From assembly GCA_965652415.1 (NCBI GenBank), contig CBFGVH010000002.1, positions 17,325 through 81,324 on the forward strand: DNA of 64,000 nucleotides. The letters are read 5' to 3'. This DNA is from an uncultured Gammaproteobacteria bacterium (GTDB taxonomy: Bacteria > Pseudomonadota > Gammaproteobacteria > Arenicellales > CAJQKF01). Below the pieces are notes generated by a model that saw nothing but the letters and a program-made list of their open reading frames with translations, had not been told where the DNA came from and did no database searches. Each line of letters opens with the position of its first letter. Positions within the stretch are counted from its first letter, which is position 1. The translations under genes were made by a program, and so were the position numbers. Shown in pieces: positions 8,126 through 25,443 of the stretch.

Positions 8126-8884
8126 TCAATCGGACCGAGGTGTACCGGCGGCCTCTATTCGGGCGGGGTGGACGACGATGCTGCGGCCCTCGAGGTGAAT
8201 CATGCCGCGATCCTCGAGCGTGTGCAGCACCTGGCCCGCCATCTCGCGCGAGCAGTTGACGATGCGGCCGAGTTCCTCGCGGGTGATCCGGATCATCTTG
8301 CCTTCCGGGTGGGTGATTGCGTCGCCGGCCCCGGCGAGCTCCATCAGTGTGCGGGCGATTCGTCCGGTGACGTCCAGGAAAGCCAGGTCGCTCAGCTTCT
8401 CGCTGGTCTTGCGCAGGCGCACCGCGAGCTGACGGGTGAGTTCCATGAGCAGGTCCGGGTCCTCGTGAATCAGGGCCCGGAACTGCGGAAACCCCACGAC
8501 GGCGAGTTCACAGTTGGTTCGCGCGATCACCGTGGCGCTGCGGCGGAGTCGTTCCTCGAACATGCCCATCTCGCCGAAGAACTCGCCCGGGTTGAGGTAG
8601 TGGAAAACCAGCCGCTGTCCGAGTTCGTTATAGACCTCCGCAGTCACCGAACCCCGCATGACATAGTACACTTCCTCGGACACCGTTCCCTGCTGAACGA
8701 TGATCTCCTTCGCCCGGTATTGCCGAAACACGGACGCAGCCAGCATTTTTCGAATCGGCGCAGGCGCCTCGGCGGGTTGTACGCGATAATTCAACCTTGT
8801 CTCTCTCTGTCGTTGTTGGTGTCGGCGCGATCCGTTGTGCCCCGGTTCGTCCTCGCATCGCGGCCATTCGAGTGACGGGTTCAA
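8126..8884 (-). CDS. crp: Crp/Vfr-like cAMP receptor transcription factor (start uncertain)
   Basis: Aligns by eye to E. coli CRP over its length: FGEMGMFEERLRRSATVIA (cAMP Glu/Arg/Ser), RLRKTSEKLSDLAFLDVTGRIARTL, and HTH ITREELGRIVNCSREMAGQVLHTLEDRGMI. The N-terminal 48 aa of the ORF look non-homologous. An alternative TTG lies near 8794. Confidence 0.8.
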   Translation of the reverse strand: MNPSLEWPRCEDEPGHNGSRRHQQRQRETRLNYRVQPAEAPAPIRKMLAASVFRQYRAKEIIVQQGTVSEEVYYVMRGSVTAEVYNELGQRLVFHYLNPGEFFGEMGMFEERLRRSATVIARTNCELAVVGFPQFRALIHEDPDLLMELTRQLAVRLRKTSEKLSDLAFLDVTGRIARTLMELAGAGDAITHPEGKMIRITREELGRIVNCSREMAGQVLHTLEDRGMIHLEGRSIVVHPARIEAAGTPRSD

Positions 8885-9188: not shown

Positions 9189-12100
9189 TTGTCGCTGGCC
9201 GCGCCACGGTCAGGATACCGGAATACACAGCCCGGAACACCATCGGACCGGCCTGCACAGAAGCGCGTCACGAGTCGGGCAGAACAACGATCAACGAGGA
9301 GGCAGGGCATCGCCACTAACAGACAATGCCGCGCGTGCGGCACGGGCAACGCCTCGACGGCCAGGTTCTGTCACGCCTGCGGCGAGCAGCTTGACATCAA
9401 TCAATGCCCGAGCTGCGGGGCGAGCAATCCCCACGGTGCGAATTTCTGCGTCAACTGCGGGCGCAAGCTCATCGTGTCGAGCGTGGAATCGATTGCCGCC
9501 CCGACGTTCGGCGAGGCTGAGCGCGGGGCGTTGCTCGGCTTCGGTGAGCGCCGCCACCTGACCATCATGTTCTGTGACATGGTCGGCTCGACACACCTGT
9601 CGAGCGTGCTCGATCCGGAAGAACTGCAGAGCCTGATCAGCGCATTTCACGACCACTGCTCGCGCATCGTCGACCGCTACGGCGGCCGGGTATACCAGTA
9701 TCTCGGCGACGGCGCCCTGGTGTACTTCGGCTACCCGGTGGCCCACGAGAACGATGCCGAACGCACCGTGCTGGCCGCGCTGGAGATCCTCGAGTCCATC
9801 GACCAGGTCGGCACCGACGCCGGGCGCGCTGCCGCGGGACCGATCGAGGCTCGCATAGGCATCGCCACCGGGCTGACCGTTGTCGGCCAGCGCGGCGGCC
9901 AGGCCGGGTTCCTGTCCGGGGTCACGCCCAACCTGGCCAGCCGGCTGCAGGCCCTGGCAGACCCGAACACGGCGTGCGTCTCCGACGCCACCCGGCGGAT
10001 CGTTCCGGAGTTGTTCGAATTTCGCGATCTCGGGGAGCACCGGCTCAAGGGCCTCGGCGAACCGGTCCGGGTGTGGCAGGTGGTCGGTCCGCGCGAGTTC
10101 GAGACCCGTTTCGACGCGCTGAGCAGCGCGTCGCTGACGCCGATGGTCGACCGCAGCGACGAACTCGAGGAGATGCGACTGTACTGGGAGCGCGCCCGCA
10201 CCGGAGACGGCCAGGTCGTGGTTCTGAGCGGCGAGCCGGGCATCGGCAAGTCGCGCCTGGCGCGGGAGTTCCGCCGCCAGATCGAAGTCTCGCCGCACAT
10301 GTGGCTGCGCTACCAGTGCATCCCTCATCACGTCAACACCGCGTACCACCCGCTGATCCAGCAGCTCAGGATCTCGGCGCGGATATCGCCCGTCGACAGC
10401 CCGCGCCTGCAGTTCGCCAAGCTTCAGCGACTGTTCTCGGCGATCGGCGTCGACTCCGCCGATTTCCTGCCGCTGTACGCCAACATTCTTTCCATTCCGG
10501 ACCGCGACACCTATTCCGCCCCCGCCGCCAGTCCCGAGCAGGAGCAGCGCAAGGTGTTCGACAGCTTCATCCGGGTGATCAAGTCCCTTGCCCAGCGCTC
10601 GCCGCTCGTGGTCCTGTTCGAGGACGTCCACTGGATCGATCCGACGACGCTTCGCCTGCTCAACCGCCTCGTGGCCGAATGCCGCAATCTGCCGCTGTTG
10701 CTCCTGATCACGGCCCGGCCCGAGTTCGATCCTCCGTGGATCGGCAGCCCCCACGTGCGCAGCATCCAGATCGGCCGGCTTTCCGGCAACCATGCACGGG
10801 ACCTGATCGTGCGGCTGCGCGGCGGCTCGCTGATGCCCGACGGCGTGCTGGCGAACATCGTCGAGACCACCGACGGCGTGCCGCTGTTTCTCGAGGAAAT
10901 CGGCCACATGCTGATCGGGTCCTCGCGGCCGGCCGCCGGCGGGGCCGTCGTGAACGGCAACGGCTTCGCGGTGCCGATCCCGGAAACCTTGCAGGACTCC
11001 CTGGTGGCGCGGCTCGACCGACTCGGGGACCGCGCCAAGTCCCTGCTCCAGGTCGCCAGCGTCGTCGGCCGGGAATTTCCGCGAAGGCTTCTCGTCGGGG
11101 TGTCGCCGTACGATGCGGAAACCACCGACTCGACGATGAAACGCCTGGTCAATTCCGGTCTCGTACAGTCCGAGGGCCGCGACGACAATGTCCATTACCT
11201 GTTCAAGCACTCGCTGATCCAGGAAGCCGCCTACCAGAGCATCCTCAAGACCGCCCGGCCGACGCTGCATCGGCGCATCTGCGAAACCATCGAGGGCGAT
11301 CCCGCACTGGCGCAGAGCATGAGTCTCGAGTTCCTGGCCTACCACAGCCTCGAAGCCGGGATGCGCCGCAGGGGCATCGACTACCTGCGCCGCGCCGGCC
11401 AGAGCGCCAGCGAGCGCTCCGCCAGCCAGGAGGCGGTGCACCACCTGAACCGGGCCCTGGAGTTGCTCGCGCTCGAACCCGAGGGTTCCGAGCGCGATCG
11501 CGACGAGCTGCAGATCCTGGTCGTCCTCGGTCCCGTGCTGATGGCGACGGAGGGCAGCGGCTCGGCCAGGACCACCGATATCTATCGGCGGGCGATGGAG
11601 CTGTGTGCGACGCTTCCGGAATCGCCGGAGCATTTCGCCGCCTCCTGGGGCTGGTGGCGCATCCACATGAACATGAATTTCACCGAGGGCCGCAAGTGGG
11701 CCGATCGACTGGTGGATCTGGCCGGCCGCCTCGACGACCCCGGGTTGCTGCTGCAGGCGCATCACTGCCAGTGGGCGACGCTGTTCAACATCGGCGAGCA
11801 AGTGGAATGCCTGCAGCATGTCGATCTCGGCCTGCCCCTTTATGATCCCGCGTTCCACCACCGTCACGCCTCGCTTTACGGCGGCCACGACCCGCAGGTG
11901 TGCGGTCTGGGGGAGAGCGCCCTGTCCTGCTGGCTGCTGGGCCGTCCCGAGCAGGCGGCTCGCTGCATCGCCGATGCCCTTGCCGCGGCCGAGCGCCTCG
12001 GTCACATCGGCAGCACCGCGCATGCCATGGACATCACCCTGATGCTCGACCGCTACCGCGATGACCCGGCCGCGGTACTGGAACGGTCGACGTCGATGAT

Positions 12101-12659
12101 CCGCTTCGCCTACCAGCAGTCGCTGCCCGACTATCGCGCCAAGGGCGAATTCTTCACCGGCTGGGCCCACGGCAAGCTGGTCGACGCGCGCGAGGGTATC
12201 GGCAAGATGAAGCTCGGCATGGACACCCTGCTGGCCATCGGGACGCGCGAGGACTTCCCGGTCTACTTCGACATGCTCGCCGAGATCTACGGCATCCTCG
12301 GCGAGCCGCGCCAGGGGCTCGAGGCCATCGGGCAGGCGTTCGAGGAGGCCGATCGCAGCGGTCTGCACTACTGGGACGCGGAACTGCACCGACGACGCGG
12401 CGAGCTGACCCGCATGCTTGCCGACGCCGATCCCGCCGAGTTCGAAGAGTGTTTCCACCGCGCCCTGGAAGTCGCACGCGCCCAGCAGACGCTGGCGCTG
12501 GAACTGCGCGCCGCGCGCAGCCTGGCGAGGGTCCACTTCGACCGCGGCGCCAGGAAAGAGGCGCTGACTCTGCTGGAGCCGGTCTACGCCAGGTTTTCCG
12601 AAGGCCTGGCGACGAACGAGCTGGTGAGCGCCGCGTCCCTGCTCAGGTCCCTGTCGTGA
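9189..12659 (+). CDS. double zinc-ribbon / class III adenylate-guanylate cyclase / STAND (AAA_16) ATPase / TPR protein
   Basis: - Zinc ribbons: CRAC-x10-CHAC and CPSC-x10-CVNC.
- Cyclase core: RRHLTIMFCDMVGST, YLGDGALVYFGYP, ARIGIATG, GVTPNLASRLQ.
- Walker A GEPGIGKS at 10230-10253.
- Long helical/TPR C-terminus.
- No in-frame ATG precedes the zinc ribbon. The track start is TTG 9189. A strong GAGGAGG (9296-9302) lies 6 nt before an in-frame ATC at 9309. Confidence 0.85.
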   Translation: MSLAAPRSGYRNTQPGTPSDRPAQKRVTSRAEQRSTRRQGIATNRQCRACGTGNASTARFCHACGEQLDINQCPSCGASNPHGANFCVNCGRKLIVSSVESIAAPTFGEAERGALLGFGERRHLTIMFCDMVGSTHLSSVLDPEELQSLISAFHDHCSRIVDRYGGRVYQYLGDGALVYFGYPVAHENDAERTVLAALEILESIDQVGTDAGRAAAGPIEARIGIATGLTVVGQRGGQAGFLSGVTPNLASRLQALADPNTACVSDATRRIVPELFEFRDLGEHRLKGLGEPVRVWQVVGPREFETRFDALSSASLTPMVDRSDELEEMRLYWERARTGDGQVVVLSGEPGIGKSRLAREFRRQIEVSPHMWLRYQCIPHHVNTAYHPLIQQLRISARISPVDSPRLQFAKLQRLFSAIGVDSADFLPLYANILSIPDRDTYSAPAASPEQEQRKVFDSFIRVIKSLAQRSPLVVLFEDVHWIDPTTLRLLNRLVAECRNLPLLLLITARPEFDPPWIGSPHVRSIQIGRLSGNHARDLIVRLRGGSLMPDGVLANIVETTDGVPLFLEEIGHMLIGSSRPAAGGAVVNGNGFAVPIPETLQDSLVARLDRLGDRAKSLLQVASVVGREFPRRLLVGVSPYDAETTDSTMKRLVNSGLVQSEGRDDNVHYLFKHSLIQEAAYQSILKTARPTLHRRICETIEGDPALAQSMSLEFLAYHSLEAGMRRRGIDYLRRAGQSASERSASQEAVHHLNRALELLALEPEGSERDRDELQILVVLGPVLMATEGSGSARTTDIYRRAMELCATLPESPEHFAASWGWWRIHMNMNFTEGRKWADRLVDLAGRLDDPGLLLQAHHCQWATLFNIGEQVECLQHVDLGLPLYDPAFHHRHASLYGGHDPQVCGLGESALSCWLLGRPEQAARCIADALAAAERLGHIGSTAHAMDITLMLDRYRDDPAAVLERSTSMIRFAYQQSLPDYRAKGEFFTGWAHGKLVDAREGIGKMKLGMDTLLAIGTREDFPVYFDMLAEIYGILGEPRQGLEAIGQAFEEADRSGLHYWDAELHRRRGELTRMLADADPAEFEECFHRALEVARAQQTLALELRAARSLARVHFDRGARKEALTLLEPVYARFSEGLATNELVSAASLLRSLS

Positions 12660-13900
12660 CCGTCGCCGGGACATTACCCGGCGATGCGCGCAAGCGCTAC
12701 TTTCGGGGCACCCATCGCACCGTGGAGCCGTCGCGAACGTTGTCCGTGGTCGCCCCCTTCCTCGGGGAGATGGGGATCACCCGTGTCGCAAACGTCACCG
12801 GCCTGGACCGGATCGGCATTCCCGTGTACACCGTGTGCCGGCCCAATTCCCGCTCGATTTCCGTGTGCCAGGGCAAGGGACTGGACGCCGACGCGGCCAG
12901 GGTGTCGGGCGTGATGGAGGCGGTGGAAACCTGGCACGCCGAGAACATCGCCCTGCCCGTCAGGCTGGGCAGCCGCGACGAGCTCCAGCGCGAACTGCCG
13001 CTGGTCGACGTCGATCGGCTACCGAAGTCGGTCGAAGAGCTCTACCGGCCGGATCGCCCCCTGCCGTGGGTCCAGGGCCAACGCTGGCCGGACGGCGCGC
13101 CGCTGTACGTGCCATTGGAGATCGTCAGCGCCGACTACACCCTGCCGCGCCTTCCCGGCAGCGGCTGCTTCGCCGCCAGCACCAACGGCCTGGCCTCGGG
13201 CAACACCCTCGCCGAGGCGGTGGCCCATGGGCTCTACGAGGTGATCGAGCGCGACGCCTCGACACTCTGGAGCCTGTCACGACCGCGCGCCAGGCATGAG
13301 CGCGGCGTGGACCCGGCCACCATCGACGACGACGATTGCCGCGCACTGCTGGCTCGTTTCGAACAGGCGGGGCTCGAAGTGCGGACCTGGGACGTGACCT
13401 CGGATGTCGGTATCGCGGTTTTCCTCTGTCTCGTGTTCTCGCGCGAGGCCGACGCATCGGATCCCGAGTTCGGCTGCGGCGCCCATCCCGCGAGGGAGAT
13501 CGCCCTGGCGCGGGCCCTCACCGAGGCCGCCCAGGCGCGCACCACGTTCATCGCCGGCTCCCGCGACGACTTCGACCCGGCGCTCTACGGCCGCGAGGCC
13601 CGCACCCGCCGGCGCGCATACTGCCTTGGCGAGGCGGCCCGTCACCGGCCGCTGCGTGCGTTCGCCGACACCCCCACCCGCAACGCCGACTCGATCGAGT
13701 CGGATCTCAACCACGCCCGCGAACGCCTGGCTCGCGCCGGGATGGACACAATCGTGGTCGTCGACCTGACCCGGGAGCCCCCGGGGATTCCGGTGGTCAG
13801 GGTGATCGTGCCGGGACTGGAAGGTCCGCGCGACCATGACGGCGCCGACTACGTGCCAGGCGAACGTGCCCGGGCGGCCGTCGCGGATCTGCCGTTGTGA
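12656..13900 (+). CDS. YcaO-domain protein (TfuA-associated type)
   Basis: Motifs: KRYFRGTHRTV, ITRVANVTGLDRIGIPVY, SGVMEAVETWHAE (S-x3-E-x2-E), GLYEVIERDA, GCGAHPAREIALARALTEAAQARTTFIAGSRDD. GTG 12656-12658 overlaps the cyclase stop TGA 12657-12659. The track ORF from 12449 overlaps the cyclase and is not used. Confidence 0.88.
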   Translation: MTVAGTLPGDARKRYFRGTHRTVEPSRTLSVVAPFLGEMGITRVANVTGLDRIGIPVYTVCRPNSRSISVCQGKGLDADAARVSGVMEAVETWHAENIALPVRLGSRDELQRELPLVDVDRLPKSVEELYRPDRPLPWVQGQRWPDGAPLYVPLEIVSADYTLPRLPGSGCFAASTNGLASGNTLAEAVAHGLYEVIERDASTLWSLSRPRARHERGVDPATIDDDDCRALLARFEQAGLEVRTWDVTSDVGIAVFLCLVFSREADASDPEFGCGAHPAREIALARALTEAAQARTTFIAGSRDDFDPALYGREARTRRRAYCLGEAARHRPLRAFADTPTRNADSIESDLNHARERLARAGMDTIVVVDLTREPPGIPVVRVIVPGLEGPRDHDGADYVPGERARAAVADLPL

Positions 13901-15252
13901 ATGTCGCGATCTTCGCCGGGCCGACCATCGACGTCGCCGCCGTGACCGCGGCAATCGACGCCGTGGTACTGCCGCCGGTCCGCCAGGGCGACGTCTACCG
14001 CCTGGTCGAGGCGCACGCGCCGCGCATGATCGGCATCGTCGACGGCTACTTCCACCAGGTTCCCTCGGTATGGCACAAGGAGATCCTGTGGGCCCTGTCC
14101 CGCGGCGTCGCCGTGTTCGGCAGCGCCAGCATGGGCGCGCTGCGCGCCGCCGAGCTCGCGTCCTTCGGCATGGTCGGCGTCGGGGTCGTCTACGAGGCAT
14201 ACCGGGACGGCCGCTTCGCACCCTACAACGACGCTTTCGAGCACGACGACGAGGTGGCGGTGATGCACGGCCCGGCGGAACTCGGCTACCCCGCCGTGTC
14301 CGAGGCCCTGGTCAACATTCGAACCACTCTCGACCGGGCCGAACGCGAGTCGGTGATCGACCCCGGTCAACGCGACGCGCTCAAGGACCTCGCCAGGTCC
14401 ATGTACTATGCCGACCGCACGTGGGAGTCGCTGCTGCAGGCGGCGCAGACCTTCGGGCTCGCATGTCCGTACGACCGTCTGAGCTCCTGGCTCGCCGGCG
14501 GGCGCGTGAATCGCAAGAGGCTCGACGCCGAGGCCATGATCGCGGCGATGAAATCCGCCACGGAGTCGATGCCGCAGAAGCCGCGGTTCCATTTCGAGCA
14601 CACCGGCCAGTGGCAGCGGATGATCGAAGGCATCCATGCCCGAACCGAAGCGGCGAATCCCGCGCTCGTGGAACTCGCCCTTCGCGGCGACGACTATATC
14701 GTCTGCCGCCGCCGCGCGGTGCGGCGGCTGCTGGCGCTGGATTCACCGGGGCGCGACGATGATGCCCTCGCCGATATTCGCGCGGTCCTCGAGTTGGCGC
14801 ATCCGGAACGTTCGGCACGACAGCTGAACGACATCCACCGCGATCCTGACCGCGTCGATGACCTGCTCGGCCGGGAGTTGGCCGCCCGTACACTCGAGTC
14901 CTGGGTTCGCGGCATCCCGGCGGATGTCATCGAGCGGCACATGGCAGCCGAGCTTCGCGACGACGGCCGGCTCGAGGAACTTCAGCGGCGGGCGGCGCAA
15001 AAGCGCGAGGTGCTCGATACCCTCGGCAACCCCCTTGCCGCCGCGGCGCTGAGGGGCCCCGAGGACCTCCAGCTGCTGGACTGGTACTTCGGGCGTCGCC
15101 TTGGCGCGGAGCTGCCCGACGATCTCGGCGAACATGCCCGGACACACGGGTTCACCGACGCCGAGGCATTGATCCAGGCCGTGTTCGACGAGTATCTTTT
15201 CACATCGAAACAGGACGACACCGGCGCGAGGACGGCTGGCGATGCTGTTTAA
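13897..15252 (+). CDS. TfuA-like protein with a roughly 200-aa C-terminal extension
   Basis: The N-terminal half carries the TfuA core (VLPPVRQGDVYRL, MIGIVDGYFHQVPSVWHKEILWALSRGVAVFGSASMGALRAAELASFGMVGVG). GTG 13897-13899 overlaps the YcaO stop 13898-13900. Residues from about 240 to 451 match no family I recognise. Confidence 0.85.
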   Translation: MNVAIFAGPTIDVAAVTAAIDAVVLPPVRQGDVYRLVEAHAPRMIGIVDGYFHQVPSVWHKEILWALSRGVAVFGSASMGALRAAELASFGMVGVGVVYEAYRDGRFAPYNDAFEHDDEVAVMHGPAELGYPAVSEALVNIRTTLDRAERESVIDPGQRDALKDLARSMYYADRTWESLLQAAQTFGLACPYDRLSSWLAGGRVNRKRLDAEAMIAAMKSATESMPQKPRFHFEHTGQWQRMIEGIHARTEAANPALVELALRGDDYIVCRRRAVRRLLALDSPGRDDDALADIRAVLELAHPERSARQLNDIHRDPDRVDDLLGRELAARTLESWVRGIPADVIERHMAAELRDDGRLEELQRRAAQKREVLDTLGNPLAAAALRGPEDLQLLDWYFGRRLGAELPDDLGEHARTHGFTDAEALIQAVFDEYLFTSKQDDTGARTAGDAV

Positions 15253-16450
15253 CGGCCTGGCTTTCGAGGAGACCGGAACTCGTTTCCGGCTCTATCCCCA
15301 GTCCCCGGTGCTCGACGAGTTCGCCGAGCCGGAAACGGTTTGGGTGTCCACGGCGCCCTGGGAGATCGAGCCGGGTCCGGCAGACGCGCGCATGTACGTG
15401 GTCGATGCCGTCGGCAAGGACGAGCCCTACGCCTTTCCCGCCCTGCCGCCGTGGCAAGGTCGGCGCCATCCCGAAGTGACCGCGGGTCCCGACGGTCACT
15501 TCGATCACCTGGCGGCCGACAGCCGCGAGTTCCGAGCCGCCCACATGTACGGCGTCATGCGCATGGTGCTGGACATCTGGGAAGGCTACTTCCAGCGCCG
15601 GATCGGGTGGCACTTCCAGGACGTGCTGCCGCGGCTCGAGCTGATTCCGTGGCTGCGGTGGAACAACGCCCAGGCCGGGTTCGGGTTCATCGAGACCGGG
15701 TATCGACTCGGGCCGGGCGGCGAGCGGGTGCCGCTCAGCCTCAACTTCGACGTGCTCGCCCACGAACTCGGTCACAGCATCCTCTACTCGGAACTGGGCC
15801 TGCCGGCCGATGGCGAGGCGAGCGCCGAGTACGTGGCTTATCACGAGTCCGCCAGCGACCTCGTCGCCATCATCTCCGTGCTGCATTTCGATTCCATCGT
15901 CGACCTGCTGCTCGAGCGCACTCGCGGCAACCTGTACGTGCGAAACGTCCTCAATCGCATCGGAGAGACCTCGCCCACCGAGCAGCTGCGACTCGCCAGC
16001 AACCGGCTGCGCATGCGCGACGTTCCTGATCGCGCGTCGCCGCTGGCGGCACTGTCCCAGCGCCAGCGCCACTTGCTCGGCGAACCGGTCACGGGCGCGG
16101 TGTTCGACATTCTCGTGGAAGTTTTCCAGCAGATGCTGGTCGATGAGGGGCTGATCAGCGAACACCTCGACGCCATCTCCCGCCGCGACGCCTGCAGCCA
16201 CCGCCTGGGGCCCAGTCAGGCAGGGTTCGACCGCGCCTGGGCCCGCGCACCCGCGGCGTTTAAGCGCGTTCTCGGCGAGGCGCGGGATTACATGGGGCAG
16301 GTGCTTGCCCTGTCGTGGGAGGAACTGGGTTTCGACCTGACCTTCGTCGACGTCGGCCGCGCCCTGCTGCGGGCCGACCTCGAGCTGTCGGGCGGCCGGT
16401 TTCATCCGGAGATACTCCAGTCCCTGGTGTGGCGCGAGATCGGAGAATGA
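15242..16450 (+). CDS. cytoplasmic zinc metalloprotease-like protein (HExxH...ExxxD, thermolysin/M4-like gluzincin motif)
   Basis: HELGH at 15761-15775, followed 23 residues later by HESASD (compare NEAxSD of M4). No signal peptide. The ATG overlaps the TfuA 3' end by 11 nt. GAGGA SD lies upstream. Confidence 0.65.
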   Translation: MLFNGLAFEETGTRFRLYPQSPVLDEFAEPETVWVSTAPWEIEPGPADARMYVVDAVGKDEPYAFPALPPWQGRRHPEVTAGPDGHFDHLAADSREFRAAHMYGVMRMVLDIWEGYFQRRIGWHFQDVLPRLELIPWLRWNNAQAGFGFIETGYRLGPGGERVPLSLNFDVLAHELGHSILYSELGLPADGEASAEYVAYHESASDLVAIISVLHFDSIVDLLLERTRGNLYVRNVLNRIGETSPTEQLRLASNRLRMRDVPDRASPLAALSQRQRHLLGEPVTGAVFDILVEVFQQMLVDEGLISEHLDAISRRDACSHRLGPSQAGFDRAWARAPAAFKRVLGEARDYMGQVLALSWEELGFDLTFVDVGRALLRADLELSGGRFHPEILQSLVWREIGE

Positions 16451-16546
16451 CGACCCCGCGCGCATCTGGACAACGCGTGCGGGCTGAACTAACCTGTCGA
16501 CCACGCGACGAATGACCGCGGCGCCCCACGCCGCAGAGGTGGAAGA

Positions 16547-17251
16547 ATGGCACTCGATCCGACCAACGACCTGTTCGAGGATCTCTACGAACCCACCAAG
16601 ATCTACCTGTTCGGGAAGCGATTCCAGAGCCTGTCGTTCAATATCGGTGACCTCGCGCTGACGCCGTACGCTCCATCGGACAAGGTGCCGAAAGAGCGTG
16701 ATGTTCCCATGCCGCCCCCACGGTGGGAACGAAGCCTGCGACGGCTCAGGGTGGACCAGGATGACGACAAGTGTCCGGACGCCGCGCAGCTGGCCCGTAT
16801 CTACAGCTTCTCGTTCGAGGGGCATTACTACAAGCTGCCGAAGCCGGTGATATACCTCGTCTGGGGCGAAGGCGAAGTACCGGAAGACGTTCCGACCGAA
16901 ACCGGTATTGCTCCTCCCCGCCGCGGAGTAGTCCCCGTTCGTGGCGCCGGAGATCCAACCTTCTTCACCGTGAATACCGGCATCGAGGGCAAGGCGTTCC
17001 GCTTCGCCTCCGACATCCGCGTCTGGAAGATGGACTGCCAGGACATGTCGGTGGCCATCGATCTCGAGGTCGGCGACATGAAGGACATCCTGCTGGCCCG
17101 CGTGATCGAGGAGCAGGAAGGCATGCGCGCCGCGGCTTCGTCGCGGGCGGCCGCTTCGTCGCGGGCCGCGGCGGCATCGCGGGCCGCAGCCGCATCGCGC
17201 GCAGCGGCGAGCTTCCGCGCCGCCATGATCGGCCCGCACCACGAGGACTGA
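16547..17251 (+). CDS. hypothetical protein with a C-terminal tandem hexapeptide repeat RAAA(A/S)S x5-6
   Basis: SD AGAGGTGGAAGA precedes the ATG. Strong third-position G/C bias in this frame. The C-terminus reads MRAAASS RAAASS RAAAAS RAAAAS RAAASF RAAMIGPHHED. I do not recognise the N-terminal 190 aa. Confidence 0.6.
   Translation: MALDPTNDLFEDLYEPTKIYLFGKRFQSLSFNIGDLALTPYAPSDKVPKERDVPMPPPRWERSLRRLRVDQDDDKCPDAAQLARIYSFSFEGHYYKLPKPVIYLVWGEGEVPEDVPTETGIAPPRRGVVPVRGAGDPTFFTVNTGIEGKAFRFASDIRVWKMDCQDMSVAIDLEVGDMKDILLARVIEEQEGMRAAASSRAAASSRAAAASRAAAASRAAASFRAAMIGPHHED
17126..17233 (+). repeat. 18-bp tandem repeat, five good units plus one degenerate, in frame within the 16547-17251 CDS
   Basis: Units read directly: CGCGCCGCGGCTTCGTCG / CGGGCGGCCGCTTCGTCG / CGGGCCGCGGCGGCATCG / CGGGCCGCAGCCGCATCG / CGCGCAGCGGCGAGCTTC / CGCGCCGCCATGATCGGC. 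Confidence 0.85.
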
Positions 17252-17439: not shown

Positions 17440-18258
17440 ATGCCCAATGCCCGCCGGCTCGTCGTCGCGCTGTCCGTCTCGCTGGTGATCGCGCTCGGCG
17501 CCGCGCCGGCCGCTGCTGCCGTGTCCATGCAGGTGTCGGACGGCATCGCGTCAATGCTCGACGGCGACGGACGACCGTTCGCCGGTGTTCGGGTCGACGT
17601 CATTTCCGCCGACGGCACCTTCGCCCGCCAGGGCACGACGGACGGCTCCGGTGGTATCTGCCTGCTGGCCGAGGGCGCCGCCGCACCGTCCGGACGGACC
17701 GACTGTATTATGCTTCCCAATGGCGAGTACCGGGTGTTCGTGGGCGAGGAGCAGCCAATCCGGATCTCGGTTGGCGCCGGAGCGGTCCGACCCTCCGGCC
17801 AGCAGGCGGAACCCGCGAGCGAGGAGAAGCCGCGCTCGCGAACCGCGTTGTGGGCCGGCGCCGCGGTGCTCGCGGTCGCCGGGCTGGCCGGCGGTGGTGG
17901 CGGCGGCGGATCCTCGGACGATGAACCGGACGAACCGGTAGACGTGGTCCGCGTCTCGGTGACGCCGCAGATGCTGACCGGAAGTTTCGAGCTCGGCACC
18001 AGCCCCTGTCCCACCACCATCGGCGACCTGTCCGTAGAGAACACCGGCGACGTCGCCGCACGGGTGACGGTGGTTCCCATCGAGGGCATCTCCACCACCG
18101 GCCAGGGGCAGTCGGTCGAGCCGGGAGACTCGGCCACGGTGACGGTTCTTTACAACTGCCTCGTGGTCGCGGCCATCGCCGGCACCATCGAGGTCGGACT
18201 GACCGACGACGGGCAGTCGGACAGCGACACCATCGAGATCCTCGTCGACTTCCAGTAG
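17440..18258 (+). CDS. secreted/membrane-anchored hypothetical protein with a carboxypeptidase-regulatory-like N-terminal domain
   Basis: - Signal peptide: MPNARRLVVALSVSLVIALGAAPAAAA.
- GVRVDVISADGTFARQGTTDGSGGICL...LPNGEYRVFV resembles a CarboxypepD_reg fold.
- Internal hydrophobic segment ALWAGAAVLAVAGLAGGGGGGGSSDDEPDEP.
- AAGGAGA SD upstream. Confidence 0.55.
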   Translation: MPNARRLVVALSVSLVIALGAAPAAAAVSMQVSDGIASMLDGDGRPFAGVRVDVISADGTFARQGTTDGSGGICLLAEGAAAPSGRTDCIMLPNGEYRVFVGEEQPIRISVGAGAVRPSGQQAEPASEEKPRSRTALWAGAAVLAVAGLAGGGGGGGSSDDEPDEPVDVVRVSVTPQMLTGSFELGTSPCPTTIGDLSVENTGDVAARVTVVPIEGISTTGQGQSVEPGDSATVTVLYNCLVVAAIAGTIEVGLTDDGQSDSDTIEILVDFQ

Positions 18259-18283: not shown

Positions 18284-19489
18284 TCATTCGTCGCGAATCG
18301 CCTCGGCCGGCGACACCCGCGCGGCTAGTCGCGCCGGCCACCACGAGAACAACGCCCCAAGCAGCAGCGCCACCAGTGTCGGTGCCAGCACGCTGATCCA
18401 GCCCGGCTGCGGCGTCAATGGCAATCGCGGCCCGGCGAGGGCGGTCAGCACGTGAGCGGCGACGGTTCCGACAACGCCCGCGGCCAGTGTCACCACCGCC
18501 GCCTCGACCACGAACAGTGCTGATACCTGGCTCCTGCGCGCGCCCAGCGAAAGCCTGAGCCCGATTTCCGGTATCCGCTCGCGAACGTTCAGCACCATCA
18601 GGCTCATCAGCGTGGTGCCGCCCAGCACCAGGCACAGCAGCGCCACGGTGCCGACCCCCAGCACCACCGCGCGGCGCAGCGACTCGAGGTCGGCTACCAG
18701 CCGGCGCGCGGTCACCCAGCTCAATTCGCCGGCATTGACGCCCGGTTGCGCCAACAGGCGGCCGAGACGCCGCGCGAGGCTCTCGGCATCGCCTCCACCT
18801 GCGACGAGGATTTGTTCCACGCGACGGCCGCGGGCGCCGGGCAGGCCTCGGGCCGCCGCCGCCGACGACCACGGGACCAGCACGAAACGCTCGCCGAGGG
18901 TGCGCCCCCGGACGCCGTCGCCGGCATTGGCGGCCGGCGCGTCCACCACGCCCACGATGGTGAACGGGACGTCGTCCAGCATCGCGATGCTCCCCGTTCG
19001 CCAGTCGAAATCGCGGGCCAGCGCACGACTCGCCAGCGCCACGCGGCCCTGCTCGCGAACGTCGCGCGCATCGAGGTTGCGGCCATCGATAATGGTCCAG
19101 CCGCGCATGGGGACCAGCTCCGCGTCGGTGGCGATCACGGTCAGCGGGTTGTCCCGCCCGAGCATCTCCGAGCGGTAGTGAGTGAGCGTAGCGACATCGA
19201 CCCCCTGGAAATTGCGGCGAACGAGATCGGCATGCTGGATGCCCAGGCCGTCTGCCGATCCATCGAGCGCGTCTTCGCGCCCGATGGACACGACATCGGC
19301 GCCGAACTCGGCGGTGACGGCGTCGATCCGCTGTTGCAGGGCGGTCACCACGAGAACCAGGATCGCAAATGCCATGACGCCGACTGCGACCGCGAACGCG
19401 GCCAGGGCATGGCGCCCGCCGTGCCCTCTGAAGCCTTCGGCGAGGTCGCTTGCGAGCCGCGCGCCGCGCATCGGCAGCGGGGTCAACAT
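18284..19489 (-). CDS. ABC transporter permease, FtsX/MacB type
   Basis: 401 aa. N-terminal TM helix, a large periplasmic domain, then three C-terminal TM helices (MacB/FtsX topology). Overlaps the upstream ATPase gene by 7 nt. Confidence 0.85.
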   Translation of the reverse strand: MLTPLPMRGARLASDLAEGFRGHGGRHALAAFAVAVGVMAFAILVLVVTALQQRIDAVTAEFGADVVSIGREDALDGSADGLGIQHADLVRRNFQGVDVATLTHYRSEMLGRDNPLTVIATDAELVPMRGWTIIDGRNLDARDVREQGRVALASRALARDFDWRTGSIAMLDDVPFTIVGVVDAPAANAGDGVRGRTLGERFVLVPWSSAAAARGLPGARGRRVEQILVAGGGDAESLARRLGRLLAQPGVNAGELSWVTARRLVADLESLRRAVVLGVGTVALLCLVLGGTTLMSLMVLNVRERIPEIGLRLSLGARRSQVSALFVVEAAVVTLAAGVVGTVAAHVLTALAGPRLPLTPQPGWISVLAPTLVALLLGALFSWWPARLAARVSPAEAIRDE

Positions 19490-20154
19490 GGTCGCGCATC
19501 CGCGCCGGTGAAGGCGCCGTCGACAAGTTTCATGTGGCGCGAGCCGTGGCGCAGCAAGTCGAGGTTGTGAGTCGCCATGAGGATGGTCATGCCGTCCTGG
19601 TGGAGGCGGCCGAAGACCTCCATCACCCGGCGCGCCGCCTCGCGGTCGAGGTTTCCGGTCGGTTCGTCGGCCACCAGCAGCCTCGGACTCGCGGCGATGG
19701 CGCGGGCGATCGCCACGCGCTGCATCTCACCGCCCGAAAGCACCCGCGCCGGGCGATCCGACAATGCGTCGATACCGACCCTGGCGAGCGCTTCGCGCGC
19801 CAGGCGTTCGGCGTCGCCGCGGGCACGGTCGGTGTAACGAAACCTGAACATGACATTCTCCAGCACGCTGCGCCGCGGCAGCAGCGCGTAGCGCTGGAAC
19901 ACGATGCCCACGGCGCGCGCACGCGCCAGGCTCAACGCGCGTTCGCTCGAGCGGGAGAGGTCCTCGCCCATGAACGCCAGGGCGCCGGCCGTGGGCGCGT
20001 CGAGCAGCGCCGACAGGTGCAGCAGCGTGCTCTTGCCCGAGCCGGACGGCCCGGTCACCATGACGAATTCACCCGCGTCGATGACGAGATCGACGCCCCG
20101 CAGCGCCTCGACCCGGGCGTGCCCCGATCCGAATGCCTTGCGTACGCCGTCCAT
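19483..20154 (-). CDS. ABC transporter ATP-binding protein (MacB/LolD-like)
   Basis: 223 aa from ATG 20152-20154. Motifs: Walker A GPSGSGKST, signature LSGGEMQR, Walker B LLVADEPT. An in-frame TTG at 20173-20175 would overlap the adaptor stop (TTGA). The rest of the 620-aa track ORF is out-of-frame read-through over the adaptor gene. Confidence 0.9.
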   Translation of the reverse strand: MDGVRKAFGSGHARVEALRGVDLVIDAGEFVMVTGPSGSGKSTLLHLSALLDAPTAGALAFMGEDLSRSSERALSLARARAVGIVFQRYALLPRRSVLENVMFRFRYTDRARGDAERLAREALARVGIDALSDRPARVLSGGEMQRVAIARAIAASPRLLVADEPTGNLDREAARRVMEVFGRLHQDGMTILMATHNLDLLRHGSRHMKLVDGAFTGADARPC

Positions 20155-20171
20155 GGCGAGCACCGGGGCGG

Positions 20172-21404
20172 TCAATCCACGACCACCCGGTCGCCGGGCG
20201 CGAGGCCCGCGACCACCTCGTAGTGGGTGAGGTTGGCTCGGCCGACTGAAACCTCGCGCCACTCGGGCGTGCCGTCGACGAGAACGCGGGCTCGCGGTTC
20301 GCCGCCGCCGAAGCGCACGGCGCGGCGCGGCACCAGCACGGCGTCTTCGGCGAAATACGATTGCACCTGTACCACCACCGACATGCCGGGCCGGATTCGC
20401 GGGTCGTTCGTCTCGATGCGCACCACGACGTGGAAGAACTTCTGCCGGTCGGGCTTGCCGGGGACCGACTGCGCCACGGCACCGACCGTTTCCACGTGTC
20501 CGTCGAAGCGCAGGTCCGGATAGGCCAGCGGCTGAACCAGCGCGGGAGCGCCGTGCGCCACTGTGTTGAGTTCCGCCTCGGGTACGTCGAGCACGGCCAC
20601 CAGGTCGGACATGTCGGGCAGGATCATGAACGGCTGGTTCGGGTACAGCGTGTCGCCGACGCGAACCCGCCTGAACTCGTTGCCGATGCCGAGCGGCTTG
20701 TAGACGACGACGCCGCCGGCTGGAGCGCGGATCACCGAGCTGGCGAGCTGCTCGCGGGCCACGGCGAGCGACTGCTCCGCCGAGGCCACGGTCGTTCGCG
20801 CCTTGGCCAATGCCGCCGGGTGCAGGTAGTCCCGGGTCAGCCTGTATTCGAGCTCGGCCTTGTCCACCTCGGCATCGAGGCTCGCCACCTTGCGCCGCTG
20901 CTGCTCGACCTCCTGGGCCGACAGCATGCGGTCGCGCATCAGGGCCTCGGAGTCGTCGAGGTAGGCGCGCTCGGCGTCGCGCTTGCGGCGGGACTCGTCG
21001 AGAGCCAGTTCGAGTTCCTTGAGTTCCAGCGGCAGGCGGGCGTGCTCGAGACTCTCGAGTTCGCTGCGGGCGATGGCCAGTTCCTGCTCCAGCTTCATGA
21101 TGCGGGCCCGGATCTCGCTGGCGTCGAACCGGGCGAGGACGTCGCCGGGGGCGACGGTGGCGCCCTCCTCCACCAGTTCGACCAGCGTGGCCGGGCCCTG
21201 GAAGCGCGAGGCCACGCTGACCATGTGACGCGACTCGATCACGCCGTCGTGGGCGCTGAGCACGGACAGCTCGCCGCGGGTGACCATCGTGGTGGAGACA
21301 TCGGCGGGCAGGTCGCGTGTCGTGGTGGTGTCCCTGAACGACCACGCCAGGGTGGCAGCGCCGGCGGCGAGTACGAGCACTGCGAGCCAGCGCACGGCGC
21401 TCAT
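20172..21404 (-). CDS. HlyD/MacA-family periplasmic adaptor subunit
   Basis: 410 aa. N-terminal anchor MSAVRWLAVLVLAAGAATLA, a long coiled-coil hairpin, then beta-barrel and MP domains. ATGA overlap with the upstream TolC-family gene. Confidence 0.85.
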   Translation of the reverse strand: MSAVRWLAVLVLAAGAATLAWSFRDTTTTRDLPADVSTTMVTRGELSVLSAHDGVIESRHMVSVASRFQGPATLVELVEEGATVAPGDVLARFDASEIRARIMKLEQELAIARSELESLEHARLPLELKELELALDESRRKRDAERAYLDDSEALMRDRMLSAQEVEQQRRKVASLDAEVDKAELEYRLTRDYLHPAALAKARTTVASAEQSLAVAREQLASSVIRAPAGGVVVYKPLGIGNEFRRVRVGDTLYPNQPFMILPDMSDLVAVLDVPEAELNTVAHGAPALVQPLAYPDLRFDGHVETVGAVAQSVPGKPDRQKFFHVVVRIETNDPRIRPGMSVVVQVQSYFAEDAVLVPRRAVRFGGGEPRARVLVDGTPEWREVSVGRANLTHYEVVAGLAPGDRVVVD

Positions 21405-22810
21405 TGGAGCGCCTCCGGGGCGAGCATCGCCGGGTACTCGATCAGCACGCCGATGGTGTGCAGGAACCTCCAGGCCGCCAGCGTCGCATCGGTCTCGCCC
21501 GCCAGCAGGCGGCTCTCGGCATCCAGGTACGCCTCCTCGGCGTCGGTCACGGAGAAGTTGTCGGTGCGACCGCTCTCGAACAGGCGGCGCGCAAGTTCCA
21601 GCCGCGCCGAGGCGTGATCGAGATTCGACTCGAAGGTGGCCAGATCCGCGCGCGCGCGCCGGTAGGCGAGCATGGACTGGCGCACCTCGCGCGAGATCCC
21701 GAGTTGCACCACCCGGATCCGCTGCTCGGCCGACACCTCCTCCAGCCTCGCCTGCTCGAGGTCGATGCGCGCCGCCCGGTCGTTGAGATCGGTTTCGCCC
21801 CGCACCCCCACGAACCAGCGGCTGCGGTCGCCGCCGAAGAACGTCAGCGGCTTGTCGGCGCGCTCGTAGCGGCCGGTCAGGGTGACGTCCGGCAGGAGCA
21901 GGTTCTCCGCGATGCGGGCCCCGCGCACGGCGTCGTCGCGATCCTGCAGGGCCTGGGCATAGTCGAGACGATTATCCAGCGCGCGCTCGACCGCCTCGTG
22001 GGAGGTCGGCAGGTCGATGGAAAAGATCCCCGTCGGTTCCAGTGCCAGAACGATGTCCGGGTCCAGCCCCAGCAGTTCGGCCAGCGCCTGCCGCTCGGAT
22101 TCGAGCCGTTCCGTATTGGCCGCAAGGCGCGAGCGCGCCAGTCCCTGCTGCAGCTCGACGCGCAGCGAATCGATGCGCGTCGAGCGCCCCAGAGCCTCCT
22201 TGGCGCGGGTGCTGCGCAGCAGCTCCTCGGCGCGATCGAGCGACTCGCGGTCGGCGGCCACCTGGCGCTCGAAGCGCAGTATGCTCTCGTAGGATTCGAT
22301 GACGTCGAGAACCAGGTCGGAGCGGCGCGCGAAGTACAGTCGTTCGCTGCGGCGCAGCGCGCTAGTCGCGCGCACCACCGGCTCTTCGTTGACCAGGCGG
22401 CCGAAGCGCCGGAACAGCGGCTGGTTGAACTCGATGGCAAGCCGCGCGCGGCGGCCGAGGGAACGGTCGAAATCGTCGCTGGTCACGGTCGCGGACAGGC
22501 GCGCGCCGGTGCCGAAGCGCTTCGACGTCTCGAGCCCGTAGCGAGACGTGGTTTCGTCGTCGAGGGTCCCGATTTCCAGCACGGGCCGCACCTCGATATC
22601 GAAGCTGGACTCGGCCCGTTCCACTGCCAGGCTCGCGCCCTTGACGTCGAGAATATCCAGTACCAGCGAACGGTTCTGCCAGACGGCCAGCTCGATGGCA
22701 CGGTCGAGATCGAGACGGTAGGGTTGCGCCGCGGCAACCGATTGCCCCGCCGCGAGACACGAGATCGCCAGGGCGGCGATCGAGCGGGACAGCACGTTTG
22801 TTGGGCGCAT
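21401..22810 (-). CDS. TolC-family outer membrane efflux protein
   Basis: Start chosen at ATG 22808-22810, giving signal peptide MRPTNVLSRSIAALAISCLAAGQSVAAAQ. Two repeated TolC-type coiled-coil/beta halves. Confidence 0.85.
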   Translation of the reverse strand: MRPTNVLSRSIAALAISCLAAGQSVAAAQPYRLDLDRAIELAVWQNRSLVLDILDVKGASLAVERAESSFDIEVRPVLEIGTLDDETTSRYGLETSKRFGTGARLSATVTSDDFDRSLGRRARLAIEFNQPLFRRFGRLVNEEPVVRATSALRRSERLYFARRSDLVLDVIESYESILRFERQVAADRESLDRAEELLRSTRAKEALGRSTRIDSLRVELQQGLARSRLAANTERLESERQALAELLGLDPDIVLALEPTGIFSIDLPTSHEAVERALDNRLDYAQALQDRDDAVRGARIAENLLLPDVTLTGRYERADKPLTFFGGDRSRWFVGVRGETDLNDRAARIDLEQARLEEVSAEQRIRVVQLGISREVRQSMLAYRRARADLATFESNLDHASARLELARRLFESGRTDNFSVTDAEEAYLDAESRLLAGETDATLAAWRFLHTIGVLIEYPAMLAPEALQ

Positions 22811-23089
22811 CGACGAACCGGAACACGATGGAGTAATGATTCGGCGCGGCGGCGCCGGCGATGTCAGGACCGATCGGGTCGCGCTGTCCATGTCGCGCCA
22901 CATCGGCCGCTTCAATCATACCGGGCGAGGCAGGCACGGGAAAGGATGCGCCGATGCTTGCGGCAGCGTCGCAAAAAACACTCTGCCGGGCTTTACCTTC
23001 TTGATTATCCGATGATTTCTGATAACCTTGGGCGGCATAACAAAACCTGCTCATCGTACTTCTGAACGCCCACCGGGAGGAATCGCGCA

Positions 23090-23686: not shown

Positions 23687-24985
23687 TCACGCCAGCAGCG
23701 GCGCCACCACTATACGGATCAGCTCGCCGGCGCGCCTCAGTGCCATCTCGGCATCAAGGGGCGTCGCCGCCCGGCTGAACACGAACCCCGGGTAGGCGCC
23801 TCCTTCGGGCCACGCGGTGATCACCTGCCCGCTCCCTACATCGATTTCCACGTCCTCGATGCCCGGCACCCGGCGCGCCTCGCCGATGCCCTCCACGCGC
23901 CGCACCACTCCCGAGGCCGGTACCGGCACCATCAGCACGCCTGCCCCGCCGCGCAGCGGGGCAATGGCCGGTTTCTCACCGACTGCGTGCGCGATGACGA
24001 TCTCTTCCAGCGTGAGTCCGGTGGCGAAAGTCAGCAGCCGCGCGCACTTGCCGCCGATGGTTCGCGCGGCAACCTCGAGCGGCCAGACGCCGTGGGCGTT
24101 CACGCGGCACTCCGCGTGTACCGGCCCCTCGACCAGGCCGAGCGCGCTGCACGCGGCCTGGACGTCTTCGCCGATACGCTCGACGATGGCGGGAGCCAGG
24201 CGCGACGGCGTCGTGTAATACGTCTCCTCGAAGTAAGGACCGGTGAGCGGTTCGGGCTTGTCGAACACCGCCAGCACCTCGAGTATCCCGCCGGTCAGCA
24301 AACCCTCGACGGCAACCTCGAAACCTGGAATGTAGCGCTCGACGAGGACGCGAAAATCCGGTTCGGCGAATTCCCTTGCAAGCAGCCGTTCGATGCGATC
24401 GAGTGCGCGGATCAACGCCGCCTCGTCGTCGACCCGGATCACGCCGCGGCTGGCGGACATCGACAGAGGCTTGACGACCAGTGGAAACGGCGGCAGCGCC
24501 AAGATCGCCGTCGGTCGATCGCGAAGATCGACACAGGCGAAGTCGGGCGACGCGACGCCTGCTTCGGCGAGTCGACCGCGGGCGCGGAGCTTGTCGTTGG
24601 TCAGCGCGGCCGCCGCCGGGTCGTTACCGTTCAGGCCGAGTCGCCGGGCGATTCGTGCCCCGAGTTCAGCCGTGGCGTCGTCGGTCACGCAAACGCCGTC
24701 GAAAGGAAAGTCGCGATGCCTCTCCCCTGCAATCTCGAGGGCGGCATCCACATCGCCCGCGTCGTGGACCGCGCCGGCGACGTGCGCCGGCAGATCGAGC
24801 GCGGAACGCGCGCACAGGAGAAAGGGTTCGACGCCGGCCGTCCGTGCCGCCTCGATGTAGGGCGCGGTGCGGTAACTGGCGTGCGGCGCCACCACGAGGA
24901 GGCGCCTGGCGGCTCGCCCCCCGGCACGCGCGACGGCCCCTTGCGTCAGCCGCAGCCCCCGCGCCCGGCGCCGCAGCCGCCGCAC
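23687..24985 (-). CDS. ATP-grasp domain protein (ligase; substrate unknown; start uncertain)
   Basis: Motifs: LVVKPLSMSASRGVIRVDD, ERYIPGFEVAVEGLL, GPVHAECRV...PLEVAARTIGG. The only in-frame start upstream of the first beta strand is GTG 24983-24985, which overlaps the erpA-like gene by 40 nt. Confidence 0.75.
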   Translation of the reverse strand: MRRLRRRARGLRLTQGAVARAGGRAARRLLVVAPHASYRTAPYIEAARTAGVEPFLLCARSALDLPAHVAGAVHDAGDVDAALEIAGERHRDFPFDGVCVTDDATAELGARIARRLGLNGNDPAAAALTNDKLRARGRLAEAGVASPDFACVDLRDRPTAILALPPFPLVVKPLSMSASRGVIRVDDEAALIRALDRIERLLAREFAEPDFRVLVERYIPGFEVAVEGLLTGGILEVLAVFDKPEPLTGPYFEETYYTTPSRLAPAIVERIGEDVQAACSALGLVEGPVHAECRVNAHGVWPLEVAARTIGGKCARLLTFATGLTLEEIVIAHAVGEKPAIAPLRGGAGVLMVPVPASGVVRRVEGIGEARRVPGIEDVEIDVGSGQVITAWPEGGAYPGFVFSRAATPLDAEMALRRAGELIRIVVAPLLA

Positions 24986-25341: not shown

Positions 25342-25443
25342 GTCGATCAACCTCGAGTTACGTATAATCATGTCTTTTACAGCAAATCCCGCAACGCATC
25401 AATGTTCCACCAGGGATGTAATCCCTTTCCCGGAGTCCGGTAA

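Follow-up and report, generated by a model that had tools for sequence, protein, structure and literature searches.

YcaO enzymes that are associated with TfuA catalyse ATP-dependent thioamidation of peptide backbones, and YcaO enzymes also form azolines and amidines. In the thiovarsolin pathway the genes varA, encoding a repeat precursor, varY and varT suffice for the production of thioamidated A-P-R peptides, in which the thioamide is placed on the residue preceding Arg; every VarA repeat is a core, and the cutting is done by housekeeping peptidases (PMC6511847). The Escherichia coli YcaO thioamidates Met82 of the folded protein uL16, beside Arg81, through recognition of tertiary structure, and TfuA delivers sulfide from ThiS-COSH (PMC13063428). 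The characterised TfuA-dependent thioamide peptides all come from Actinobacteria (PMC8120280). In Proteobacteria YcaO–TfuA clusters are plentiful, and the products of none of them are known. The locus described here lies in a stretch of 64,000 nucleotides of contig CBFGVH010000002.1 (positions 17,325 to 81,324) from an uncultured gammaproteobacterium, hereafter called the window. It consists of five plus-strand genes, identified from the map of open reading frames (ORFs) and their translations: a cyclase-STAND gene (g1, 9189–12659), a YcaO gene (g2, 12656–13900), a TfuA gene (g3, 13897–15252), a metalloprotease candidate (g4, 15242–16450) and a gene for a repeat-tailed protein (g5, 16547–17251). 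The module probably represents a new and so far uncharacterised family of systems that modify peptides or proteins by thioamidation.

The scan for related loci covered one genome per species and retrieved 80 loci, the gene arrangements of which were called by tblastn with the window proteins. Relatives of g4 were present in 129 species-level genomes, mainly of Alpha-, Beta- and Gammaproteobacteria, and also in a few other phyla. The gammaproteobacterial carriers included the Competibacteraceae (closest, 67% identity), Arenicellales and Poriferihabitaceae, the betaproteobacterial carriers Burkholderiales, and the alphaproteobacterial carriers Rhodospirillales, Kiloniellales and Geminicoccaceae as well as the cultured Pelagibius litoralis DSM 21314 and Aestuariispira insulae CECT 8488. 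The window order of cyclase-STAND, YcaO, TfuA and g4 on one strand was found in 56 loci, and in eight loci the same four genes occurred with the cyclase gene convergent downstream of g5. In one locus (L060) a divergent cyclase lay downstream instead of the STAND-type one, two (L057 and L080) had a g4 homologue by itself, and 14 were on contigs too short for judgement. The STAND-type cyclase, YcaO, TfuA and g4 were together in 64 of the 67 assessable loci, and a g5-like gene was located on the 3' side of g4 in every checked locus with complete downstream sequence. With a strict repeat criterion a downstream g5-like gene was recognised in 64 of 86 loci, and degenerate or frameshifted copies were seen in most of the remaining inspected loci with complete sequence.

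The flanking genes varied among the loci, and conservation in so large a share of the assessable loci despite unrelated flanks indicates more than chance adjacency. That the five genes form one functional module is close to certain. The original prediction had named, as a finding that would speak against it, a YcaO–TfuA pair usually occurring without the cyclase, protease and repeat genes. The result was the opposite, as relatives of the g4/YcaO/TfuA module nearly always have the cyclase and the protease, and have a repeat-tailed protein in all cases in which the sequence downstream was inspected. When all neighbouring ORFs were clustered, only the five core families and a Crp-type regulator recurred; no transporter or exporter, immunity gene, ThiS, dehydrogenase or E1-like gene was conserved among the module neighbours. 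A search for ORFs of 20–79 amino acids near the module in 77 loci gave only shadows common to close relatives and no conserved short precursor. The earlier reading of the window, in which an E1-like partner, a dehydrogenase and a short precursor gene are all missing from the cluster, is thus borne out by both the clustering and the short-ORF search. Because no other conserved partner gene or short ORF was found, g5 is the sole conserved candidate substrate, as had been proposed for the repeat-tailed protein of the window.

Some loci deviated from the common arrangement. The downstream cyclase of L060 (12793–14574), which replaces the STAND type, is shorter and belongs to a different sort of class III cyclase. 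In L057 (Rhodospirillales) and L080 (Scalinduaceae) the g4 homologue lies at about 10001–11164, with no YcaO, TfuA or cyclase gene within 10 kb. In L030, L031 and L052 core genes (cyclase, YcaO, TfuA, g4 or g5) are broken into several frames, these being either decaying copies or insertion–deletion errors of metagenome-assembled genomes.

The candidate substrate or precursor g5 (plus strand) has 234 amino acids in the window and 96–420 across its family, and it is composed of a conserved N-terminal domain and a repeat tail. In the window the tail includes six tandem hexapeptide units (17126–17233, plus strand), RAAASS, RAAASS, RAAAAS, RAAAAS, RAAASF and RAAMIG, followed by PHHED. The Arg residues of the units are at positions 194, 200, 206, 212, 218 and 224 of the protein, and Tandem Repeats Finder reported arrays with an 18-nt period at 17121–17209 (82% match). 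The tail had been called an Ala/Ser repeat; it is repetitive, but it is better described as an arginine-anchored hexapeptide repeat. A logo built from 376 units of 59 non-redundant loci gave the consensus R-[A/S/G]-x-[M/L/A]-x-[S/A/G]. Position 1 was Arg in 100% of the units, position 2 Ala, Ser or Gly in 89%, position 4 Met in 52%, Leu in 24% and Ala in 14% (altogether 90%), and position 6 Ser, Ala or Gly in 87% (Ser 53%, Ala or Gly 34%), positions 3 and 5 being variable. A His close to the C-terminus was almost universal.

Tandem repeats of the type found in multi-core precursors were in this way present beside YcaO and TfuA in the 59 loci, with 3 to 13 units per protein and a median of 6. 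The units are near-identical inside one g5 and lineage-specific among proteins, the window having RAAAAS and other loci RSAAAS, RMAMAS, RAKMAS, RGDMTS, RADLTS, RAMMQS or RGAMAA. Such homogenisation within proteins, together with divergence between lineages, is the pattern of concerted evolution expected of multi-core precursors. More distant g5 members have periods of five or seven residues and keep an A-R motif (SGARV, GMHAR, SGAHARI). Among these, P0172, P0189, P0207, P0214 and P0225 as well as the g5 of L060 (11474–12127) have SGARV seven times, GMHAR six times, GMNAR six times or SGAHARI five times, and big extra N-terminal inserts that extend the proteins up to 420 amino acids.

The N-terminal domain of the g5 family has three conserved blocks, LFGK, ARIY-FSYEG-YY-LP-P---FLV-G and D---W--D--D-S---D-E-G---ILL, and residues G23, P100 and W160 were invariant in an alignment of 46 diverse members. 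The initial search found only eight close homologues. An exhaustive profile search extended the family to 468 clusters at 50% identity with E ≤ 1e-3, 305 of them with E ≤ 1e-10; a word-indexed search with the 46-sequence profile gave 16 matches, the repeat words having probably saturated the candidate list. No family match for g5 was found in Pfam, NCBIfam or PADLOC, and no N-terminal signal sequence was seen in its translation. The AlphaFold2 model of g5 was poor (predicted local distance difference test, pLDDT, 59.7) and no fold match was found for it, and the g5 profile gave only low-complexity noise against the Protein Data Bank (PDB). A gasdermin-like nature of g5 was considered as well and was unsupported by the structure search.

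A second, smaller cluster adjoins the first in L001 (15239–18635, minus strand). It has a YcaO of 406 amino acids, a short TfuA of 257, a g4-like protein of 376 (36–38% identity) and a 96-amino-acid peptide, and an MFS transporter gene and a Crp-like gene are located near it. The peptide carries three KKMQMRGRMVASD repeats with acidic spacers and the core R-G-R-M-x-[A/S], and it does not have the N-terminal domain of g5. Since the core repeats occur there without that domain, the Arg-anchored unit is suggested to be the functional element. This peptide is also the exception to the finding that g5 does not have the form of a short precursor with a leader.

The product of g4 (plus strand) is a candidate for a cytoplasmic zinc metalloprotease of the thermolysin fold (M36/M4-like). 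It had no match in the Pfam, NCBIfam or PADLOC models, and each of its at least 1166 homologues is annotated as hypothetical. Residues H174, E175, H178, E202 and D206 were invariant among 32 sequences, and the motifs HELGH and HESASD mirror the HExxH...NExxSD signature of the M4 family, as is the case in gluzincins. The AlphaFold2 model (pLDDT 76.8, predicted template modelling score 0.83) was compared with the PDB by Foldseek, and the best matches were the M36 fungalysins 7qp3 (E 4e-5) and 4k90 (E 5.7e-5), followed by thermolysin, aureolysin and LasB, with a Foldseek probability of about 1.0. The earlier label of g4 as a gluzincin therefore holds as to fold and motif, and Pfam adds no match to it. 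Neither a signal-like N-terminus nor a propeptide was visible in the translation of g4, and for this reason we regard it as a cytoplasmic remote relative of the M4 and M36 families and not as a member proper.

The assignment of g2 as a YcaO was upheld by the Pfam model PF02624 (289.4 bits against a cutoff of 25.7), which was covered from profile position 1 to 325 of 325, and the motifs SGVMEAVE, EVIERDA and TEAAQAR..GSRDD noticed earlier are present in its translation. The best NCBIfam match was TIGR03266, the YcaO of McrA-Gly thioamidation, with 237.6 bits, and the SagD-type model scored lower (148 bits). The score for TIGR03266 did not reach the equivalog cutoff of 365 bits; judged by these scores, TIGR03266 is the closest family and g2 is not an orthologue. 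The nearest solved chain was the methanogen YcaO MJ1094 (6pe3, E 4.9e-31). Likewise g3 is a TfuA, as had been stated, with PF07812 at 155.4 bits against a cutoff of 30 and the domain at residues 49–175. With NF033432, the TfuA-related McrA thioamidation protein, it scored 194.4 bits, under the equivalog cutoff of 235.2. The roughly 220 residues of g3 beyond the TfuA domain form a C-terminal extension for which no relative was found in the PDB. The TfuA proteins of the loci fall into two lengths, about 440 and about 240 amino acids, and TfuA adjoins YcaO in every assessable locus save L057 and L080, where g4 stands alone. Chemistry of the thioamide type, the original suggestion, is the best reading of the two genes, the top NCBIfam matches being the McrA-thioamidation YcaO and TfuA models and the closest structure MJ1094.

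The cyclase-STAND character of g1 (plus strand) was supported by Pfam matches to DZR (double zinc ribbon), Guanylate_cyc (63.8 bits), AAA_16 (83.9 bits) and, weakly, TPR_12. The protein has a double zinc ribbon, a class III nucleotidyl cyclase, an AAA_16 (STAND) NTPase at residues 321–505 and a TPR-like C-terminal repeat region, and its translation includes the Walker A motif GEPGIGKS and LVVLFEDVHW. The metal-binding Asp pair and the transition-state Asn and Arg of class III cyclases are present in the motifs FCDMVGST, YLGDG and TPNLASRLQ, and the corresponding FCDxVGST, YLGDG and TPNLAxRLQ are kept across 57 loci. The canonical adenine-specifying Lys/Asp pair was not found in the cyclase. 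At the positions that correspond to the pair by alignment to the canonical motif, the Lys is replaced by Gln in the window and by Arg in the family consensus, and the Asp by a hydrophobic residue. Against TIGR03903, the TOMM kinase/cyclase fusion, g1 scored 522 bits, below the cutoff of 705.75, and covered only model positions 265–1265. The kinship implied by the original prediction is accordingly that of a relative and not of a member, the kinase part being absent. The TOMM kinase/cyclase protein is not known to have been characterised experimentally.

A Crp-family regulator gene (8126–8884, minus strand; cNMP_binding 73 bits and HTH_Crp_2 37 bits in Pfam) is divergent from g1 in the window. 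In 22 loci, the window included, a Crp-like gene lay no more than about 3 kb from the module; among the 44 loci with 2 kb or more of flanking sequence on each side, 15 had one. The regulator is a frequent accessory gene of the module and not a core gene.

The gene identities, the conservation of the module, the repeat architecture and the fold and motifs of the protease are direct observations. The balance of the evidence leans slightly towards the module being a member of a widespread uncharacterised thioamidation system, with the g5 tail as a multi-core substrate, g4 as its releasing protease and g1 as a switch. In such a system YcaO (g2) would activate backbone amides with ATP and TfuA (g3) would bring the sulfide, giving thioamides. 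The dedicated substrate would be the C-terminal tail of g5, probably with one modification per unit near the invariant Arg, and the N-terminal domain would serve as the recognition ("leader") domain. By analogy with the described thioamide systems, thioamidation of the g5 tail appears reasonably likely. The modified tail would be cut by g4, most likely before the conserved hydrophobic position, which would free several copies of a short thioamidated peptide. Thermolysin-type enzymes favour a hydrophobic P1' residue, and the cut is placed before unit position 4 because this preference fits the conserved residue there. We put forward the release of peptides by g4 as a tentative proposal. The logic would be that of a multi-core product of the class of peptides made on the ribosome and modified after translation (RiPP), similar to thiovarsolin. 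The g1 protein could act as a ligand-gated switch, the cyclic nucleotide monophosphate (cNMP) output of which controls or reports on the pathway, and the adjacent Crp-type regulator could read this cNMP in about a third of the loci. Regulatory coupling by cNMP and Crp may exist, with the odds somewhat on the other side.

Several observations weigh against the multi-core thioamidation system. Its chemistry, its site of modification, the cutting of the tail and the part played by signalling are all inferred. The g5 protein is large (170–420 amino acids) and has a conserved, folded-looking domain, and hence differs from the usual short precursor. In one subgroup of about 160 amino acids (P0130–P0136, also L074:11231–11704) the N-terminal g5 domain is kept and the protein ends in a single non-repeated tail, ...ANMQLGHRSGKL.... 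The template modelling scores of the g4 fold were just 0.35–0.5 in the Foldseek comparison, and no significant M4 or M36 sequence match was found for g4, its profile giving E ≥ 0.45 against the PDB sequences. The substrate-specifying residues of the g1 cyclase are non-canonical, and about two thirds of the loci are without Crp. Because the module has no conserved exporter, immunity gene or ThiS, an intracellular role fits at least as well as a secreted product.

One alternative is that the pathway modifies a protein and yields no RiPP. The g5 protein would then stay intact, for example with a tail that binds a metal or a ligand and is rich in Met, His and thioamides; g4 would act as a protease in maturation or quality control, or would be a partner without catalytic activity. 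Modification of entire proteins by YcaO enzymes has precedents such as MCR and uL16 (PMC13063428); the N-terminal domain of g5 is conserved with its invariant G23, P100 and W160, no exporter is conserved and no signal sequence is visible in g4 or g5, and Met is the commonest residue at unit position 4 (52%) and His almost universal near the C-terminus. Homogenised tandem units in copy numbers of 3–13 are, however, typical of multi-core precursors, and the dedicated protease, its catalytic residues intact, is never missing. Moreover, the second cluster of L001 has the repeats without the N-terminal domain, and the units of the window (RAAAAS) are nearly free of Met; we consider an intact g5 unlikely. 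Another kind of YcaO chemistry, with TfuA in another role, might produce an oxazoline at the Ser before each Arg, or an amidine. Such products would agree with the 53% of units that have Ser at position 6 and with the 148-bit match of g2 to the SagD-type model. Position 6 is nevertheless freely Ala or Gly (34%), and azoline chemistry is unlikely because the unit lacks a conserved Ser, Thr or Cys. Neither an E1-like/Ocin-ThiF partner nor a dehydrogenase is present in the locus, TfuA always adjoins YcaO, and the thioamide-type models score higher than the SagD type. Taken as a whole, azoline or amidine formation on the tail is very improbable.

The STAND architecture of g1 and the pairing of a protease with a protein that has a C-terminal tail also recall conflict systems. 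The STAND protein would sense an invader and give a cNMP signal, and the protease would turn g5 into a toxic effector, following the logic of Avs, Pycsar or gasdermins. At the level of domains the cyclase and the cNMP-binding domain of Crp match the Pycsar PycC and effector models, respectively, in PADLOC (PycC at most 43 bits on g1 and PycTIR 58 bits on the cNMP domain of Crp), with no TIR or transmembrane effector found. These matches are weak (43–58 bits or less) and restricted to domains, and YcaO, TfuA, g4 and g5 have none; g5 is without similarity to known effectors. The context in the window is one of housekeeping genes (ThrRS, UvrB, LepA, Ccm genes), and no signature of a mobile element or defence island was seen in the window, where no search was aimed at such signatures. 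A defence function is accordingly a very unlikely explanation. That the five genes are functionally unrelated and stand together by a lineage-specific accident is favoured by nothing beyond its a priori possibility. Of the 67 assessable loci, which span Alpha-, Beta- and Gammaproteobacteria plus a few further phyla, 64 keep the gene set, with varying flanks and with one clade in which the position of the cyclase is rearranged, and the probability of accident is practically negligible. An intracellular signalling or effector device, as opposed to a secreted product, would combine the STAND sensor and the non-canonical cyclase with the thioamide writers and the cytoplasmic protease, and would yield, from a dedicated protein, multiple thioamidated copies of an Arg peptide or a tail rich in thioamides, Met and His. 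It is in our view improbable. A peptide from g5 might itself be the ligand of the TPR region of the STAND protein. If the intracellular device is real, it would be a new type of peptide–cNMP regulatory circuit in Gram-negative bacteria.

The junctions of the five genes could be read directly from the sequence and are as originally described. The stop of g1 and the start of g2 overlap in GTGA at 12656–12659, and the stop of g2 and the start of g3 in GTGA at 13897–13900. The ATG of g4 at 15242 sits 11 nt within g3, which has its stop at 15250–15252. The spacer between g4 and g5 is 96 nt long and is followed by cagaggtggaagaATG at 16547; the end of the spacer before g5 reads GAGGTGGAAGA-ATG. Of the claim that the genes are translationally coupled the overlaps stand, and the coupling would follow from the overlaps alone. 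Overlaps of starts and stops are commonplace in operons, and in most of the other loci the cyclase and YcaO genes adjoin without overlap. The start of g1 is uncertain, TTG at 9189 being the only canonical in-frame start; a GGAGG is present at about 9298–9302, six bases before an ATC and just ahead of the zinc-ribbon cysteines of g1 (window 9189–9330). The GC content of third codon positions is high in g1–g5, as in real genes of this window of 67% GC. Scans for promoters and terminators gave nothing beyond shuffle expectation.

The other neighbours in the window were rejected as cluster members. The MacB-type permease, ABC ATPase, HlyD-family adaptor and outer-membrane factor genes (18284–22915, minus strand), a short way downstream of the module, are not conserved with it, and neither is the GspH gene of the window. 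The 272-amino-acid protein encoded directly on the 3' side of g5 (17440–18258, plus strand), the N-terminus of which resembles a signal peptide and which has a run of Gly in its interior, had no homologue in any of 85 loci. An ATP-grasp gene resembling L-amino-acid ligases (ATP-grasp_4 and LAL_C2; 23687–25371, minus strand) is unlinked to the module elsewhere, as is the Fe-S biogenesis (HesB-like) gene that adjoins it. The window also includes a second large STAND protein of 1260 amino acids (48879–52661, minus strand), which is AfsR-like with BTAD, AAA_16 and TPR regions and is adjoined by a MatE transporter gene (52703–54424).

No description of this five-gene architecture was found in the searchable literature, in agreement with the earlier remark that it was not recognised as a characterised cluster. 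In the global mining of TfuA clusters (Malit et al. 2021) cyclases and repeats are absent from the main text, the featured families differ, and the A. insulae contig is listed in a supplementary table alone; the cyclase fusion is not a topic of Haft 2010. Rules of the antiSMASH type would call the locus "TfuA-related", and its general kind is in that sense already known. What is new is the family of precursors, the protease that accompanies it and the obligate linkage to the cyclase-STAND protein. Two protein families without a Pfam or NCBIfam model are defined by g4 and g5. Large cyclase-STAND proteins, which occur in the vicinity of azoline-type YcaO clusters, prove to be closely bound to thioamide-type clusters too, and this points to a general connection, as yet without explanation, between cNMP/STAND signalling and the modification of peptides by YcaO. 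With a conserved repeated candidate substrate, a dedicated protease and cultured carriers, the chemistry is directly testable.

In comparison to the described systems, each part of the module has a recognisable relative from which it differs. With M4 thermolysin and M36 fungalysin g4 has in common the fold, the HExxH and, downstream, the Glu and Asp of an (N/H)ExxSD motif. It differs in the longer spacer to the third ligand (23 residues), in being cytoplasmic and operon-linked to YcaO without a signal peptide or propeptide, and in giving no significant sequence match. The TIGR03903 proteins and g1 both have a cyclase-homology domain, an AAA_16/STAND region and a long C-terminal repeat region, and both are found beside a YcaO-type cluster, but g1 has a zinc ribbon (in some loci a SAM domain) in place of the N-terminal kinase, and its YcaO partner is TfuA-type and not a cyclodehydratase/docking fusion.

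The YcaO and TfuA of McrA thioglycine formation are the best-scoring models (TIGR03266 and NF033432) and include the closest structure for g2 and g3, and their substrate is a protein and not a small peptide. Both g2 and g3 nevertheless fall below the equivalog cutoffs, their host is a bacterium without MCR, and the candidate substrate gene of the module is dedicated and co-encoded and has a repetitive target. The E. coli YcaO is likewise a Pseudomonadota enzyme that thioamidates a folded protein next to Arg (R81-M82), and some g5 repeats read S-R-M-A-M-A; it needs no TfuA, however, its substrate is encoded elsewhere, and most g5 repeats have Ala, Ser or Gly after Arg instead of Met. The var cluster of Streptomyces varsoviensis (varA/varY/varT) is actinobacterial and the module proteobacterial. 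VarA is a short peptide with a leader, whereas g5 is a larger protein with a conserved domain; the var cluster is without a dedicated protease and a cyclase-STAND protein, and it has a heme-oxygenase-like enzyme, an ATP-grasp ligase, an amidinotransferase and an MFS exporter. What the thiovarsolin pathway and the module share is a YcaO and a TfuA, without an E1-like partner, together with a tandem-repeat core that carries a conserved Arg.

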